Shown here piece by piece: positions 14,969 through 56,095 of a stretch of 64,000 nt of DNA; within the stretch, counting starts at the first letter, position 1, and each line of letters starts with the position of its first letter. The position numbers and the translations under genes were made by a program. The notes under the pieces were generated by a model, which made no database searches, had not been told where the DNA came from, and was given only the letters and a program-made list of their open reading frames with translations. The DNA comes from a virus (lineage: Duplodnaviria > Caudoviricetes), in the IMG/VR virus record IMGVR_UViG_3300025909_000005; one strand, written 5' to 3'.

Positions 14969-15613
14969 ATGCCAAACGCAGTTGTAAAGAGCTACGCCAA
15001 GAAGACTGGAAAGTCGCCTGAGCACATCGAAGGATGGTGGAAGGAGGCCGAGAAGGAAGCCAAGAAGAAGTTCCCAAAGAAGGGCCCTCACTACTGGGCG
15101 TACGTGAACGGCATCGTGAAGCGCCGTGGTGGCATCAAGGAGGTCATCGGCTTCCGTGACTTCGTTGACCTGCTCTCAGAAGAGGATGGCGGTGAGAAGG
15201 AGTCAGCGCTCTCCAAGATGTCCAAGGAACACGGTCCTGTCCTGGACAGGATCGAGAAGATCAAGGACCTTGGGCGCACCTTCGACAAGGCTCTCAAGGC
15301 TGACGGAGATGAGAAGGCGAAGGGCAACTACGCGCACTGGCTGAAGACGACCGACAAGTACCGAGTCGCCTACTTCACCGACACCGATCTCGACATTGAA
15401 ACCGTCCTCGTCTTCCGCGGCCACAAGTGCTTCGGCCTGGCATCGAAGAACGACAGCGACGCAATCATCGACTTCAAGTTCGTGCCAATGGAACGCAGCG
15501 ACTGGCAGGCGATCGAGGACTTCAGCTTGGACAACCTTGACTCCTCGGCTACAATCACTGATGAGAACCTCGACCACTATGTTGAGATGATTCTCCAGGC
15601 CACTCATAAATAA
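14969..15613 (+). CDS. hypothetical late protein
   Basis: RBS TAAGGA; basic N-terminal domain. Confidence 0.75.
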   Translation: MPNAVVKSYAKKTGKSPEHIEGWWKEAEKEAKKKFPKKGPHYWAYVNGIVKRRGGIKEVIGFRDFVDLLSEEDGGEKESALSKMSKEHGPVLDRIEKIKDLGRTFDKALKADGDEKAKGNYAHWLKTTDKYRVAYFTDTDLDIETVLVFRGHKCFGLASKNDSDAIIDFKFVPMERSDWQAIEDFSLDNLDSSATITDENLDHYVEMILQATHK

Positions 15614-15650
15614 ACCAGAGCACAGGTTGAGGCCTGTGCTATAATAGAAA

Positions 15651-16000
15651 CATACTGCAGCAATGCAGTTGTATTGTCGTAATTCGGCATGACTTGAAGG
15701 ATTTGAGACGCGGGTTCGATTCCCGCCGGCTCCACCACAAATCATCTTAGCAAGAACCTTACGCCAACGTTGTGGCAAGGAAAGCAGCAAGGGTGATTTG
15801 TCATGGGGCCGACCAGGCTATCGATCAGGTTACGGAGATGATTGACGCGACACGTCGTAGTGACGTTAAAAACTCGTCTAGTAAACGCAAACGACTCCAA
15901 CTACGCGATCGCCGCTTAATAACCGGCCCGCGCGCGGCATAAGCCACCGTGTAAAAGAATGAGCTAGGACGGACCCGAGGAGCAATCTTTGGGTCCGTCT
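15651..16000 (+). ncRNA. ssrA: two-piece (circularly permuted) tmRNA: acceptor piece ~15651-15737, intervening hairpin 15738-15804, coding piece from 15805; tag (A)ANDSNYAIAA
   Basis: T-arm and CGGCTCC-A-CCA lie upstream of GGGGCCG (7-bp acceptor with G3.U70); tag ORF GCA AAC GAC...GCC GCT TAA at 15887-15919; promoter TATAAT 15640; 3' hairpin 15968-15999. Confidence 0.92.
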
Positions 16001-16068
16001 GCCTTTCCAGGTCGATGGACCTGACTTTCGCTTCCATCGTAAATACGTTCAACTTCAAAGGAGTTGAG

Positions 16069-26281: not shown

Positions 26282-26286
26282 TTGAG

Positions 26287-26492
26287 TTTGTTTTGATCTA
26301 AGTGTGGCTATTGGTTGCTGACAAAGTTCTGCGCTGTCTAGAGCAAGGGACCGAATCGGTGGCTGATATCGTGAAGTTCAAGTAGGGTTCGATTCCCAGC
26401 GGTTGAGGCCGTACAGGTGTCTTGCATGAATCGTTTGCCAGTCAGGAGCTAGACCTCCACCGATCCGTAACGGGCGCTTAGATCAAAACGAA
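26287..26492 (+). ncRNA. structured spacer RNA closed by an 18-bp stem
   Basis: TTTGTTTTGATCTAAGTG/CGCTTAGATCAAAACGAA; internal ATCGGTGG/CCACCGAT; T-loop-like GGGTTCGATTCCC. Confidence 0.55.
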
Positions 26493-26495
26493 TTT

Positions 26496-28949: not shown

Positions 28950-29230
28950 AATTTCAGAAGTACATGCCGCGGCGGAAGCACGACGGCTCCAAGAATTCCC
29001 ACGTGGCGGCGTGAATCCGCTAGTTTGTATAGTCTGTCACTTAACATGACTTTCGTCGCCATTACGTTACTGGTAGGCGTCAACTCAGGACCCCTGGCTT
29101 TCGACTCAAAATCGAAGGAGATACGAAGCTGCTGATGTCGGTGTTGTGAGAACCTTTTCGTTAGGGGAACTCTCTAGGTGCTTGAGCCAAATCTCTTGAA
29201 GTCGTGAGGGTGGAACCTGGCGCAGAAATT
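28950..29230 (+). ncRNA. about 280-nt structured spacer RNA, unknown
   Basis: non-coding; AATTTC/GAAATT ends, CATGACTT/AAGTCGTG, TGGCT/AGCCA stems. Confidence 0.4.
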
Positions 29231-29232
29231 TC

Positions 29233-29349
29233 GGGGACCTAGCTCAGTAGGTAGAGCACTGGATGAAAACGTTGCTGCATAGGTCGACCTTCAATGCACA
29301 ACGAAGTACGTACCGGCTGTCCGAGGTTCGAGCCCTCGGGTCCCCACCA
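29233..29349 (+). tRNA. tRNA-Phe-derived RNA with about 41-nt hairpin inserted in the anticodon loop
   Basis: perfect acceptor, D and T arms; GAGCA-CTGGA-TGAAAA, then insert CGTTG..CAACG, then ACCGG-CTGTC. Confidence 0.65.
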
Positions 29350-29354
29350 GAATT

Positions 29355-29493
29355 TGACAACCGATAGATTAGGATTATCATCCAAGCAGGTATACGTAGG
29401 TTCGAATCCTACACGGTGCGCAAGTGCCGTTCGACAAGTGGTAAAGTCACCCGCCTCGCCGCAAGGCATTTTCCTGTCGCTCCTTTGTTGTCA
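29355..29493 (+). ncRNA. circularly permuted tRNA-like module
   Basis: order: 3' anticodon strand, T-arm, 3' acceptor strand, GCAA loop, 5' acceptor strand, D-arm, 5' anticodon strand; outer TGACAAC/GTTGTCA stem. Confidence 0.65.
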
Positions 29494-29502
29494 CTTAGAT
29501 TT

Positions 29503-29588
29503 GCGGTTGTGATGGAATCTGGTAGTCTTCCTGTGCTCAGAACGCAGGGCCTTCGGGCGTGTGGGTTCGAATCCCACCTTCCGCACCA
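29503..29588 (+). tRNA. tRNA-Leu(CAG)
   Basis: loop CTCAGAA, long variable arm, CCA. Confidence 0.87.
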
Positions 29589-29593
29589 AACAA

Positions 29594-30001
29594 GTGTCCT
29601 ACTCTAGGATTAGTCATAGGAACGACCGGGAAATCATAACCGGATGTAAGCAAACCTATGGAGTGAGAGAGGAATGAGATTTTCCTCACGATTTAGCTCA
29701 CGTACCATGTGTACGAGGAGTATACGGCATCGTTCTGCGATGCTAGCCTATTTGATTGATGCCCTTAGCGGGGACAGTGTGGTGGCACGGATCGTTTTGC
29801 GGTAGTCACCTATGCATGAAGGTTCTTCCCAAGAGTAAGCAAACGTGAGGGGAGACGTCAATCACCAGTTGTCGTAACTGCAGCCTAAGGGTATGCAGTA
29901 CCGGCGCTTCGCCTGCCAATGGCTCCAGGTAGGGACGCACAGTGTGCCGAATCCGTTCAAGCCGGTTTGAGAATAAGGCTGCGTGCCGAATATAGGACCA
30001 C
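29594..30001 (+). ncRNA. about 410-nt structured RNA between tRNA-Leu and tRNA-Ser, unknown family
   Basis: closing GTGTCCTA/TAGGACCAC; several long-range pairings; no credible ORF. Confidence 0.5.
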
Positions 30002-31475: not shown

Positions 31476-31691
31476 ATGATCCTCTGCAGCTGCGCGAACA
31501 TTCCTGAGAGCGTTGCTCGAGAGAAGCTTAAGACGCAAACGCTGTCTGAGTTCATGATCGAAACGAATTGCGCGATGCAGTGCGGCTCCTGCTGGCAGGA
31601 CCTCCTTGACATCGCAGATGAATACGACAACCGATCGACCAGGGTTATCTCCCATTCGACAACCCCTGGTCAACCTCCTTCGTTGTCATGA
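31476..31691 (+). CDS. bfd: bacterioferritin-associated ferredoxin-like [2Fe-2S] protein
   Basis: MILCSC...CAMQCGSC; own TGGTATAAT promoter. Confidence 0.7.
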   Translation: MILCSCANIPESVAREKLKTQTLSEFMIETNCAMQCGSCWQDLLDIADEYDNRSTRVISHSTTPGQPPSLS

Positions 31692-31778: not shown

Positions 31779-31926
31779 TTGGCAAATGTTAGAGCAACCG
31801 CTTGATCTTGGATTATCTACTTTTATTGGTTAAAAACCCGGATACGTTCGACTCGTGTCATCCCTTTATGCCGGTGCACGGAAGGGAATTCTCCAAATCG
31901 CCTTTTGTTGCCCTAACATTTGCCAA
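31779..31926 (+). ncRNA. structured spacer RNA with perfect 14-bp closing stem and a T-arm module
   Basis: TTGGCAAATGTTAG/CTAACATTTGCCAA; GATACG-TTCGACT-CGTGTC. Confidence 0.5.
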
Positions 31927-33485: not shown

Positions 33486-33563
33486 GCCCTTGTACGCTAA
33501 TTGGAAGACGCGCGCGAGCTCAAACCTCGTGGGTTGTCGGTTCGAATCCGACCTTGGGTACCA
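33486..33563 (+). tRNA. tRNA-Leu(CAA), short variable loop
   Basis: loop CTCAAAC, CCA. Confidence 0.8.
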
Positions 33564-33714
33564 CCATATGGCATCTCAGATTGAGACCCCACCCCACACT
33601 GATTTGCGATCTGTAGCTTTTACAGATCGCATGTTGTCGTTCCCGGCCCCGCCAGCCGGTGTCCGGATAAATACCCATACGTGCTACGATGTTGTAGCTC
33701 TTCCTCAAGGAATC

Positions 33715-34104
33715 ATGATGACCAAGCTTACCCTCTCCGCTCTTGCGGCAGGCCTCCTCGCCCTCTCGGCAGGTGCCTTCGCAGACGAACCCGTCCTCAA
33801 GGCAACGCCAAACAAGGACGCATACCTCTACTCCAACACATGGGATCGTGCTGACCTTGGCGTCCGTGGCTACGGCTGCGTTCTCCCATGGAAGTACGCA
33901 GGCAAGGTCGCTCTCGGCCACGACACCGTCGTGCGCGTTGAAGTTGGCGACATCACGACCTTCGTCGACTGCCACTACGCACCAGAAGTAGTGAAGCAAA
34001 CTGTCGTCGAACAGACGGTCCAAGTCACCGAAGAACCAGCACCGGCTCCAGCTCCTGAACCAGCTCCAGCACCGGTCGAAACCAAGAAGCGAGTCAAGGA
34101 ATGA
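33715..34104 (+). CDS. secreted late protein with Pro-rich tail
   Basis: late promoter 33668, signal peptide. Confidence 0.75.
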   Translation: MMTKLTLSALAAGLLALSAGAFADEPVLKATPNKDAYLYSNTWDRADLGVRGYGCVLPWKYAGKVALGHDTVVRVEVGDITTFVDCHYAPEVVKQTVVEQTVQVTEEPAPAPAPEPAPAPVETKKRVKE

Positions 34105-34702: not shown

Positions 34703-35148
34703 TGGACGCAATTCAACTCCTGATCGATGACCACAACGCGGTCAAAGAGAAGTTTGCGCAGTTCGAACACATCGACAACTTGAACAACGCCGACGAGAAG
34801 ATCACGCTGTCACACGAGATCTGTGCTGCTCTAGCCACTCACATGGCGATCGAGGAAGAGCTCTTCTACCCGGCTGCTCGTGCCCTCTTCGACGACAAGG
34901 ACGATGAACTCGTCGATGACGCCGTGAAGGAACACAAGCACGCTCGCTCGTTGATGAAGGACATTCAGACTCTTGAGGTCGGTGTTCGCCTCAATCTCGA
35001 GATGAAGGCGCTCAAGCTCATGATCGAAGACCACGTCAAGGACGAGGAAGGCACCATGTTCCCTAAGCTTCGTCAGCTTGGCATGGAGACGACCCAGCTC
35101 GGTGAAAAGATGGCTCAACGAAAGAAGGAACTTTCACCGAACGTGTGA
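34702..35148 (+). CDS. hemerythrin/HHE cation-binding domain protein
   Basis: LLIDDH, HMAIEEELFYP, EH, HVKDEEGTMFP. Confidence 0.88.
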   Translation: MDAIQLLIDDHNAVKEKFAQFEHIDNLNNADEKITLSHEICAALATHMAIEEELFYPAARALFDDKDDELVDDAVKEHKHARSLMKDIQTLEVGVRLNLEMKALKLMIEDHVKDEEGTMFPKLRQLGMETTQLGEKMAQRKKELSPNV

Positions 35149-35161
35149 TATAATCACCACA

Positions 35162-35564
35162 TGCTCAATCACCCGGCCTAACGCTGGCTTCACGGCTAGA
35201 ACAAGTTCGGGGCTGCACAGGACAGGGCTTGTCGCTCTGTGGAAGAAGCGGTCGTGCGTTGGAAACTGCCTTTAAACTCGAAAGGGTCGGAAGCTCCAGC
35301 AACGTTCAATCGTGGTCGATCTCTCGCGGTAACAGTGAGAGCTCTCTATTGCCACTTTAGCTTTGCTTGACCACAACGACTCCGCAGCAAGTCAAACAGA
35401 CCTCGTCGACGCTGTCCGCTGAGGGGTCGGGTTGATGCACCTATGATCCGGATTGGAACCCGGGGAGGACGTCGGTCACACGGCGTAGTCAAATGTTAGG
35501 AACCATCGGCGGTTGTGAATGCCTGATGGAGAAAGTAGAACCCCGGCTATGAGGTGATTGAGCA
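35162..35564 (+). ncRNA. rnpB: RNase P RNA, bacterial type A-like
   Basis: P1 TGCTCAATCACC/GGTGATTGAGCA; P2 CCTAAC/GTTAGG; P4 AG(T)TCGGGG/CCCCGGCT; P5 GCTGC/GCAGC followed by AAG; P6 GGACA/TGTCC; CR-IV AGTCAAATG; CR-V AGAACCCCGGCTA; own TATAAT promoter. Confidence 0.88.
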
Positions 35565-35706
35565 CCTTTTACAAACACATCTCCATAAAAGAAGCAGATG
35601 AAGCACTTGTCCCTGCTAAATACTAGCAAGGATGAAGTTGAGATTCTTCCCGAATGCCGGTTCCCTCACGGACCCGAGAAGCATTCCAACCTTTTAAGGA
35701 GATGAC

Positions 35707-54794: not shown

Positions 54795-54992
54795 ATGAAT
54801 CACGCAGAGCTGCAAGCCATCGTCAACGAGAACATGGACAACGCGTTGGACAACGCGCCCGAGTTCATTAAGACGGCGTCAAACCTCGCCATCGCCGAGG
54901 ACATGCTGGAGTACTGTGCAGACTTCGAGTTCCTCGACCTATCGCCTGACGACCTGGTCCCCTTCATCGAAACATGGTGGAACAAGGTATGA
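54795..54992 (+). CDS. acidic hypothetical protein
   Basis: near-leaderless after TATAAT. Confidence 0.6.
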   Translation: MNHAELQAIVNENMDNALDNAPEFIKTASNLAIAEDMLEYCADFEFLDLSPDDLVPFIETWWNKV

Positions 54993-56095
54993 AGATCTAC
55001 ATCGTCGGTGGCGCAGTTCGCGACGCCGCAATGGGCCTGAAAGCTAAGGACGAGGACTACGTCGTCGTTGGCGCGACGCCTGAAGAGATGCTGGCCAAGG
55101 GCTTCAAGCAGGTCGGCGCAGACTTCCCAGTTTTCCTGCACCCGCAGAGCGGTGATGAATGGGCTCTGGCACGGACGGAACGCAAGTCAGGTTCCGGCTA
55201 CCTGGGCTTCGACGTCGAAACTGACGGCGTGACGCTGGAAGAAGACCTGTCGCGTCGCGACCTGACGATGAACGCAATGGCCATCGCCATTGGCTCCACA
55301 GAGATCATCGACCCATTCGGCGGTCTGAACGACATCAAGAACAGGGTGCTGCGCCACATCGGCCCGGCCTTTGCTGAGGACCCGCTGCGCGTCATCCGCC
55401 TGGCTCGCTTCTTTGCTCGCTACGAAGACTTCGTCGTCGCTGAGGAAACTGCCGAGCTGTGCAAGCAGGTGGTCAACAGCGGTGAGCTGGATGCCCTGCC
55501 GTTCGAGCGCTTCTGGGCCGAACTGGAGAAGGTCTTCACTGAGAAGCGGCCTGATCGCTTCTTCCAGGCGCTGCACGAAATGGGTGCGCTGAAGAAGGTG
55601 CGGTTCTTCCAACGCGTCTTTGGCGACACGCCGATCCAAACGCTGATGGGCGTTGCTGAAAAGCTGAAGCTGTCTCAAGAACAGCGCGTTCGTCAGTTCG
55701 TCGCCCTCGTCGGCACGCAGAAGGAACTGAAGAACGTTGCGGCGTCGACCGAGATCATGGACGTGCACCGCAACCTGCGCTTCGCGCGTTCGATCAAGAA
55801 GGTCGTCAACCGAGAAAGCGTGCATGCCTTCATCAAGCAGGCAGGCGGCTTTCAACGCGGTGAACACCACCTGACTCAGCAGTCGCTGGATGCACTGGAC
55901 GCGATCTCGTTGTCTCATCAACTGGGTCTGGATGACTTCTCTTCGCTGGCAGAGGGCTGGTTCATGATGGCCTGGATGAACGCCACGCGTGTAGGACAAG
56001 CCGACTTCCCTGAGCTCTCGGGCAAGGAGCTGGGCGAGGCCATCAAGAACAAGCGCATGGACCTGATCATGAGCTCGATCAACATGTCAACCTGA
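54989..56095 (+). CDS. cca: tRNA nucleotidyltransferase (class II CCA-adding enzyme, short form without HD domain)
   Basis: IVGGAVRD, DEDYVV, ALARTERK, EEDLSRRDLTMNAMA, DPFGG, EDPLRVIRLARF. Confidence 0.93.
   Translation: MKIYIVGGAVRDAAMGLKAKDEDYVVVGATPEEMLAKGFKQVGADFPVFLHPQSGDEWALARTERKSGSGYLGFDVETDGVTLEEDLSRRDLTMNAMAIAIGSTEIIDPFGGLNDIKNRVLRHIGPAFAEDPLRVIRLARFFARYEDFVVAEETAELCKQVVNSGELDALPFERFWAELEKVFTEKRPDRFFQALHEMGALKKVRFFQRVFGDTPIQTLMGVAEKLKLSQEQRVRQFVALVGTQKELKNVAASTEIMDVHRNLRFARSIKKVVNRESVHAFIKQAGGFQRGEHHLTQQSLDALDAISLSHQLGLDDFSSLAEGWFMMAWMNATRVGQADFPELSGKELGEAIKNKRMDLIMSSINMST

Follow-up and report, generated by a model that had tools for sequence, protein, structure and literature searches.

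What is encoded between the tRNA-Phe and tRNA-Leu genes of this phage, where the parts of a tRNA cloverleaf appear in permuted order? The window, by which we mean the whole 64-kb stretch of DNA that was analysed, is phage-like, with ~57% G+C and with 28 tRNA genes on the + strand at 25.5–33.6 kb. In public sequencing data, this DNA is found in metagenomes from rhizosphere and soil. An earlier note on the locus viewed the element as a permuted tRNA gene of a kind without precedent in phages. Instead, its architecture is that of the published YrlA-type Y RNAs, including those of 22 phages. We think it is probable (roughly 0.7) that the element is a divergent YrlA-type Y RNA gene inside a phage tRNA operon, that its ends come from tRNA processing, and that its handle docks the Ro60 protein.

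The whole Y-RNA-like gene is ~144 nt (29353–29496, + strand, like all of the parts described here), as delimited by a full-length match to our covariance model R1 (see below). Its terminal stem lies 5 nt from tRNA-Phe, which ends at 29349, and 9 nt from tRNA-Leu, which starts at 29503. The 5' strand of the handle (29355–29367) consists of TGACAAC (P1, 29355–29361), then C29362, G29363, A29364, and UAG. This is followed by a V hairpin in the minimum free energy (MFE) fold, GGAT-TATC-ATCC (29372–29383), with a YUAY-type motif (UUAU). The segment at 29386–29395 comprises GCAGG (29386–29390), which is the upstream strand of an anticodon-like stem, and a variable loop, TATAC (29391–29395), which ends with C48. 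The T arm, GTAGG/TTCGAAT/CCTAC (29396–29412), is evident from the sequence, from the MFE fold, and from the scanner described below, and it gives a local match to the Rfam tRNA model. The T arm leads into an acceptor-like helix of 7 bp (29413–29430), with strands ACGGTGC (29413–29419) and GTGCCGT (29424–29430) joined by GCAA (29420–29423). G29420 is at the discriminator position, and G29424 is the counterpart of G1.

The other half of the cloverleaf begins with U8-C9 (TC, 29431–29432), continues with a 3-bp D arm (GAC/AAGTGGTAAA/GTC, 29433–29448), and closes with A26 (A29449), so that this segment spans 29431–29449. The downstream strand of the anticodon-like stem, CCCGC (29450–29454), pairs with GCAGG at 29386–29390 with one A.C mismatch; if T29391-A29449 is counted, the stem has 5 pairs and 1 mismatch. 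An extra hairpin, GCC-GCAA-GGC (29458–29467), is seen in the MFE fold, and GCCT/AGGC with a 7-nt loop is an alternative fold for it. Finally, the 3' strand of the handle (29474–29493) includes CTGTCG (P2), the pyrimidine-rich CTCCTTT, and GTTGTCA (P1, 29487–29493).

We folded 29350–29498 with RNAfold. The MFE structure (-40.8 kcal/mol; z = -2.0 to -2.1 relative to shuffled sequences) has every helix that the earlier note named, and also P2 (CGATAG/CTGTCG), the V hairpin, and GCC-GCAA-GGC. The segments of the proposed permuted module were all found at their positions, and both the sequence and the MFE fold bear out the proposed topology, which is a cloverleaf sealed at the acceptor end and open at the anticodon end. 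The nucleotides of tRNA tertiary structure are present as well: the element has U8, A14, G15, G18G19, the TTCGAAT loop, and C48.

This combination of features is rare by chance. We used a lenient scanner that requires a T arm, then a perfect closed hairpin of 5–8 bp, and then a D arm with GG in the loop. Across both strands of the 64-kb window, the scanner had one match, which was the element, versus a mean of 0.07 matches in 100 simulated windows. Neither ARAGORN nor the Rfam tRNA model called a tRNA at the element. Also, the element has no anticodon loop: GCAGG and CCCGC lead outward into further helices, and processing could not yield an ordinary tRNA from it.

Chen et al. (2014, PMC4201824) described YrlA-type RNAs near the Ro60 genes of 254 bacteria and 22 phages. 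In these RNAs, an end-to-end stem with the presumed Ro60 site is followed by a V region, a T arm, a stem-loop called AS, which is closed, and a D arm. The V loop starts with a YUAY that is conserved (PMC4201824). We also considered the Rfam consensus for YrlA, which we saw aligned to another phage locus. It runs through P1, P2, CUA(Y), a 4-bp anticodon-like stem, the T arm, the closed AS stem-loop, UA, and the D arm, and the topology of the element is the same. This consensus even includes the short stem that closes the four-way junction.

A search with the Rfam model for YrlA (RF02553, gathering threshold 69 bits) did not match the element, even with a cutoff of E ≤ 10 on 156 nt. Modules that lie beside phage Ro60 genes reach just 37–39 bits with RF02553, so the model is narrow. 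The other Rfam families did not match the element either, whether at gathering or at permissive thresholds.

For relatives beyond Rfam, we searched viral contigs from IMG/VR for a pattern of T loop, gap, and D loop, and we obtained several closed-acceptor modules. (Many T-to-D matches on other contigs were merely adjacent or tandem tRNA genes, and we discarded these.) Among the five contigs that were first found by the RNA pattern alone, four encode TROVE (Ro60). We used the Ro60 proteins from those contigs to gather 38 phage Ro60 loci. In nearly all of these 38 loci, there are one or two closed-acceptor modules 100–800 nt downstream of Ro60. One type of Ro60-adjacent module (L069–L103) has the D arm GAC AAGTGG(A/T)TAA GTC, which is near-identical to the D arm of the element; modules with such a D arm are found in ~30 phage loci.

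From 18 Ro60-adjacent phage RNAs, with the window left out, we built the covariance model R1. The alignment of these 18 RNAs has compensatory changes in 26 of the 32 predicted pairs. In the window, R1 matched 29353–29496 across model positions 1–148 with 42.4 bits (E = 3.1e-7), far below the 80–155 bits of true members of the family; the next-best match in the window had 15 bits. With R1, pairs of neighbouring tRNA genes that have a GAC...GTC D arm reach ~43 bits locally, so the score of the element rests largely on its T and D arms. Therefore, the case for relatedness also depends on features that such tRNA pairs lack: the sealed acceptor helix, the terminal stem, and the handle. The alignment to R1 is weak at the hairpin 29458–29467, which stands where the Ro60-adjacent family carries an anticodon-like arm.

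The RNAs of the R1 family, such as L071:6090–6237, have a complete predicted cloverleaf, with a sealed acceptor, a D arm, an anticodon-like arm, and a T arm. We compared L071:6090–6237 to cultured phages and found no match. Another member (L069:6025–6172) was not matched by the Rfam model for YrlA.

The earlier note had suggested a check for covariation in relatives, and compensatory changes were indeed found, in the 18-RNA family, in a distant homolog, and in four other lineages. In the distant homolog (L179, from a metagenome contig), the parts follow one another as in the element, UC-GAC...GTC-A is shared with it, and the anticodon-like stem, GCCGC/GCGGC, is perfectly paired. Three of its stems (anticodon-like, T, and acceptor) show compensatory changes relative to the element, and the four-way junction is kept. 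In the four other lineages (L119, L154, L087, and L027), the anticodon-like stems have 5 bp, are fully paired, and differ in sequence, and the topology is the same. We also examined the Levitt pair, 15:48, in 45 unique modules that have a closed acceptor and a D stem of 3 bp. It is G:C in 38 modules and A:U in the other 7, with no mismatches, and it is G15:C48 in the element. Covariation of the Levitt pair in YrlA was noted by Chen et al. (PMC4201824).

Sister strains carry copies of the element with very few changes, on DNA contigs from two other rhizosphere samples (X2 and X4) and on four metagenome contigs. The earlier note had pointed out a G3.U70 pair (G29426.T29417). This pair is present in our copy, but it is not conserved: in X2, X4, and three metagenome contigs, T29417C converts it to G3-C70, and the helix is kept. 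The only other changes in the sister strains are 1-nt deletions in loops: the D loop may lack one A, and TATAC may be shortened to TATC, which still ends with C.

The handle of the element is not unique within the window. The 10-mer GACAACCGAT occurs exactly twice, at 29356 and 31626, and CTCCTTYGTTGTCA also occurs exactly twice, at 29480 and 31675. The two GACAACCGAT/CTCCTTYGTTGTCA pairs frame the element and a hairpin of 63 nt (31626–31688, + strand). This second RNA is a compact, Y-RNA-like paralog with the exact handle strands (z = -3.1). In its MFE structure, GACAAC[C]GA is paired with UCGUUGUC and the C is bulged. From the end inward, there is a GACAAC/GUUGUC helix, the bulged C, the GA/UC pairs, a pyrimidine-rich internal loop, and an upper stem-loop with GGGUUAUC. 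This predicted fold has the classic shape of the Ro60 site of Y RNAs.

The element has GA/UU where the 63-nt hairpin has GA/UC, so the pairing after the bulge is kept. The motif in the handle of the element is ACCGAUAG, in which CGA is present and CGAA is absent. If the bulged-C helix (CAAC[C]GA/UUGUUG) is enforced in the element, the structure has an energy of -38.3 kcal/mol, which is 2.5 above the MFE structure, which uses P2.

A longer Y-like RNA of 148 nt (31779–31926, + strand; -51.5 kcal/mol, z = -5.4) has a related handle, GCAAC[C]G/UUGUUGC. Its outer stem is 13 bp long, one of its hairpins (GATACG TTCGACT CGTGTC) resembles a T arm, and it shares GGATTATC (at 31810–31817) with the V hairpin of the element. 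We regard it as a probable third Y-like RNA of the array. A shared protein-docking site would be expected to look like this, with one predicted handle on three different bodies. In the published picture, an organism may have several Y RNAs, of which a single one is tRNA-like (PMC4201824). Separately, a model based on the handle gave up to eight tandem matches per locus around Ro60 genes (in L122, L123, L140, L144, and L171). The sequences of these loci suggest arrays of Y-like RNAs that share one handle and vary in their bodies.

Published YrlA genes are at most ~4 kb from Ro60 (PMC4201824). In the 64-kb window, we did not find Ro60/TROVE with Pfam or PHROGs, which we ran on the larger ORFs, or with an HMM for phage Ro60, which we ran on six-frame ORFs. 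By these searches of the window, the 29 kb on each side of the element contain no Ro60 gene, as might be expected if the three handle RNAs bind another protein or none. The tRNA-shaped one would then be a mimic or decoy that works independently of Ro60, by sequestering defence nucleases or host enzymes that act on tRNA, or by titrating tRNA-processing factors. The distant homolog L179 fits with this alternative, as it lies among tRNA genes and has no Ro60 gene in 13.6 kb of context, and so do the departure of the handle from the published CGAA motif and the lack of a match to Rfam's YrlA. On the other hand, the nearest relatives of the element, as judged by the covariance model and by the sequence of the D arm, are directly beside Ro60 genes, and its handle can form the bulged-C helix that is characteristic of Ro60 sites. 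We consider independence from Ro60 to be unlikely, and we infer that the element binds Ro60.

A blastn search of cultured phages with the region around the element matched only the neighbouring tRNA-Leu, and megablast of 12 kb of the window against cultured phages found no match. We also searched with the 204-amino-acid ORF at 33490–34104 and found no relatives. The window encodes NAD-salvage enzymes, adenylosuccinate synthetase, a UvrD-type helicase, and, at 54974–56095, a CCA-adding-type nucleotidyltransferase. An exact-protein look-up of the CCA-adding enzyme did not yield any contig.

We examined contigs from two metatranscriptome runs. Contigs with perfect identity cover 29001–29252 and 29486–29636, and none covers the core of the element. 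The second of these spans the last bases of the terminal stem as well as tRNA-Leu. Assembled contigs cannot show the ends of an RNA, and expression of the element is neither shown nor excluded by them.

Other features of the window were noted as well. The adjacent tRNA-Phe(GAA) gene (29233–29349, + strand) has a 43-nt interruption after the anticodon loop position, and ARAGORN calls tRNA-Phe once 29269–29311 is removed. In one sister strain, the CCA that is encoded by this gene is CAA (29348 C>A). The window also contains a permuted, two-piece-type tmRNA (15573–16003, + strand) with the tag ANDSNYAIAA, which matches the Rfam models for beta-proteobacterial and permuted tmRNA. A spacer between tRNA genes (26284–26495, + strand) has a long and near-perfect outer stem that encloses ~170 nt, including a T-loop-like GGTTCGATTCC. 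Its predicted energy is -83 kcal/mol for 226 nt, and it has no obvious handle of the element's type. We looked for a phage RNase P RNA at 35100–35620 (candidate 35144–35570), and there was no Rfam match at E ≤ 0.1.

How might a Y RNA work from within a tRNA operon? We propose that the element would be co-transcribed with the flanking tRNA-Phe and tRNA-Leu. Its ends would be set by tRNA processing: the 5' end by trimming of the 3' end of tRNA-Phe at ~29350, and the 3' end by the RNase P cut 5' of tRNA-Leu at 29503. The Y RNAs of D. radiodurans are made in one precursor with tRNA (PMC4201824). The handle, with the bulged C29362, then G.U and A-U pairs, and then the pyrimidine-rich internal loop, would dock the Ro60 protein.

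The tRNA-shaped module would adopt a stable, L-shaped fold that is bound by tRNA-recognising enzymes or by an effector such as host PNPase. Such a body could give nuclease resistance, or it could serve to recruit these tRNA-binding enzymes or an effector such as PNPase. Of the two fates that the earlier note imagined for this RNA, it is the mimic of the tRNA elbow that the evidence favours. A phage Ro60 that has Yrl RNAs binds host PNPase and slows it (PMC12135203). During infection, the likely role of the element would be in the control of RNA decay or repair, or in counter-defence.

The acceptor-like helix might also be cut. Given its 7 bp, it may be nicked by RNase P on the 5' side of G29424, and host RNase P would serve. 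The upstream piece, which would end with ...GC, could then be repaired to ...GCCA, leaving a two-piece RNA that is held together by base pairing, as with YrlA of M. smegmatis. In vivo, RNase P cleaves that YrlA, whose acceptor stem likewise has 7 bp, and the RNA is extended to CCA (PMC4201824), so the proposal in the earlier note of a cut at G1 and CCA addition is not far-fetched. By analogy, we view the nick at G29424 and the CCA repair as plausible. Three members of the R1 family (L079:6271–6329, L085:5939–5998, and L086:5778–5837) have an acceptor-closing loop of G-CCA and a few more bases. A cut at position 1 of these RNAs would leave a ready discriminator and CCA end, and their sequences hint that two-piece processing may be common in the family.

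These steps could be combined into a more elaborate proposal. The three handle RNAs would form a dispersed, tRNA-operon set of Y RNAs that is far from or independent of Ro60, and the tRNA-shaped one would be nicked by RNase P at G29424, CCA-repaired, and used as a two-piece decoy or sensor for host tRNA-targeting defences. If true, the phage would have a Y RNA that is activated by processing, but we view the full combination as distinctly unlikely.

Another explanation is that the element is a relic with no function of its own, left by the tandem duplication of a tRNA, in which the 3' half of one copy is fused to the 5' half of the next copy. Tandem copies of one tRNA do give the order of T arm, acceptor, and D arm, and these can pass our scanner (e.g., L139). 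Also, the 5' half of the element resembles phage genes of the tRNA-Glu type (UC and a 3-bp D stem). A relic is nevertheless very improbable: the junction is a clean GNRA tetraloop, without CCA or a spacer; the terminal stem and the handle are common to two RNAs that are not tRNA-like; the anticodon-like stem closes the four-way junction and covaries in other lineages; and related modules are conserved beside Ro60 genes.

Finally, we give hardly any credence to the idea in the earlier note that a cut at G1 and CCA addition would make a permuted, two-piece tRNA that lacks an anticodon and accepts alanine, for some translation-related chemistry: the 7-bp acceptor helix, the G3.U70 pair of this copy, the processing of M. 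smegmatis YrlA, the G-CCA loops of the relatives, and the phage-encoded CCA-adding-type enzyme would all suit it, but cleavage and CCA addition are also compatible with a Y RNA, and the alanine acceptor is unsupported because G3.U70 is G3-C70 in sister strains, and is weakened as well by the G at the discriminator position, where alanine tRNAs usually have A.

As a YrlA-type Y RNA, the element adds a divergent member to this class, one that standard annotation (ARAGORN and Rfam) missed. It suggests that the Y-type RNAs of a soil phage can sit inside a tRNA operon, with no Ro60 within 29 kb, as a small set with one handle. A preprint on Bas63 reports that a Ro60-like protein counters the Ppl defence, and its authors suspect that there are Y RNAs among the neighbouring tRNA genes. 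Our results support their suspicion that some of the "tRNA genes" or spacers in phage arrays are really Y RNAs. Also, these three RNAs, which combine one handle with different bodies, are concrete constructs for tests of recognition by phage Ro60. Because the class of RNA and its cleavage and CCA addition are already published, the conceptual gain is modest. The results fit with a real but fairly ordinary, divergent addition to a class that has been known since 2014.

It remains to place the element among known systems. Circularly permuted tRNA genes are found in Cyanidioschyzon merolae, in other algae, and in some archaea, and two-piece (permuted) tmRNA is comparable. Processing of these transcripts yields a normal tRNA or a working tmRNA, and the anticodon loop or the tag-coding region is kept. 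As in permuted tRNA genes, the 3' half of the cloverleaf is encoded ahead of the 5' half in the element. In contrast to those genes, the element has, in place of the anticodon arm, a stem leading to a putative protein-docking handle.

The handle can be compared to those of other Y RNAs. A stem-bulge-stem handle with CGA(A) at the Ro60 site is found in Yrl1 and Yrl2 of the Thermus phage phiLo, which occur with a phage Ro60 (PMC12135203), in Yrn1 of D. radiodurans, and in vertebrate Y RNAs, and the element could form a handle of this kind, with CGA. Yrl1 and Yrl2 have no described tRNA-like module (PMC12135203), and unlike the element, they are immediately upstream of Ro60. The binding of Ro60 by the Yrl RNAs of phiLo has been demonstrated (PMC12135203), whereas for the element it is a prediction.

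The R1 family (L069–L103), whose model matches the element full-length, shares many features with it. Both have P1 followed by UAG, a pyrimidine-rich internal loop on the 3' side, a UUAC or UUAU motif, a T arm, a closed acceptor of 7–8 bp, and a near-identical D arm. In contrast to the element, the R1 family has a closed anticodon-like arm (with the loop CUCAUAA), and its handle leaves from the position of the variable arm. Also, the R1 RNAs have UA before the D arm, instead of UC, are rich in A and T, and are encoded directly downstream of Ro60.

The last comparison is to YrlA itself (RF02553), which is known from Salmonella Typhimurium, Mycobacterium smegmatis, and mycobacteriophages (PMC4201824; structure preprint 10.1101/312249). 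The element differs from the published YrlA genes in its location, which is inside a phage tRNA array with no Ro60 gene within 4 kb. It also differs in its handle, which is CCGAUAG instead of the published GNCGAAN0-1G/CGAA; in its D stem, which has 3 bp and follows U8-C9; and in the two extra small hairpins beside the anticodon-like stem. Otherwise, the element and YrlA have the same parts: a terminal stem with a CGA-containing site, a YUAY/V region, and then, inside a short anticodon-like stem, the T arm, the closed acceptor-like stem-loop, and the D arm. They also share the signatures of tRNA tertiary structure, namely U8, A14, G15:C48, G18G19, and the T loop, and the YrlA of M. smegmatis has the same 7-bp acceptor helix as the element.
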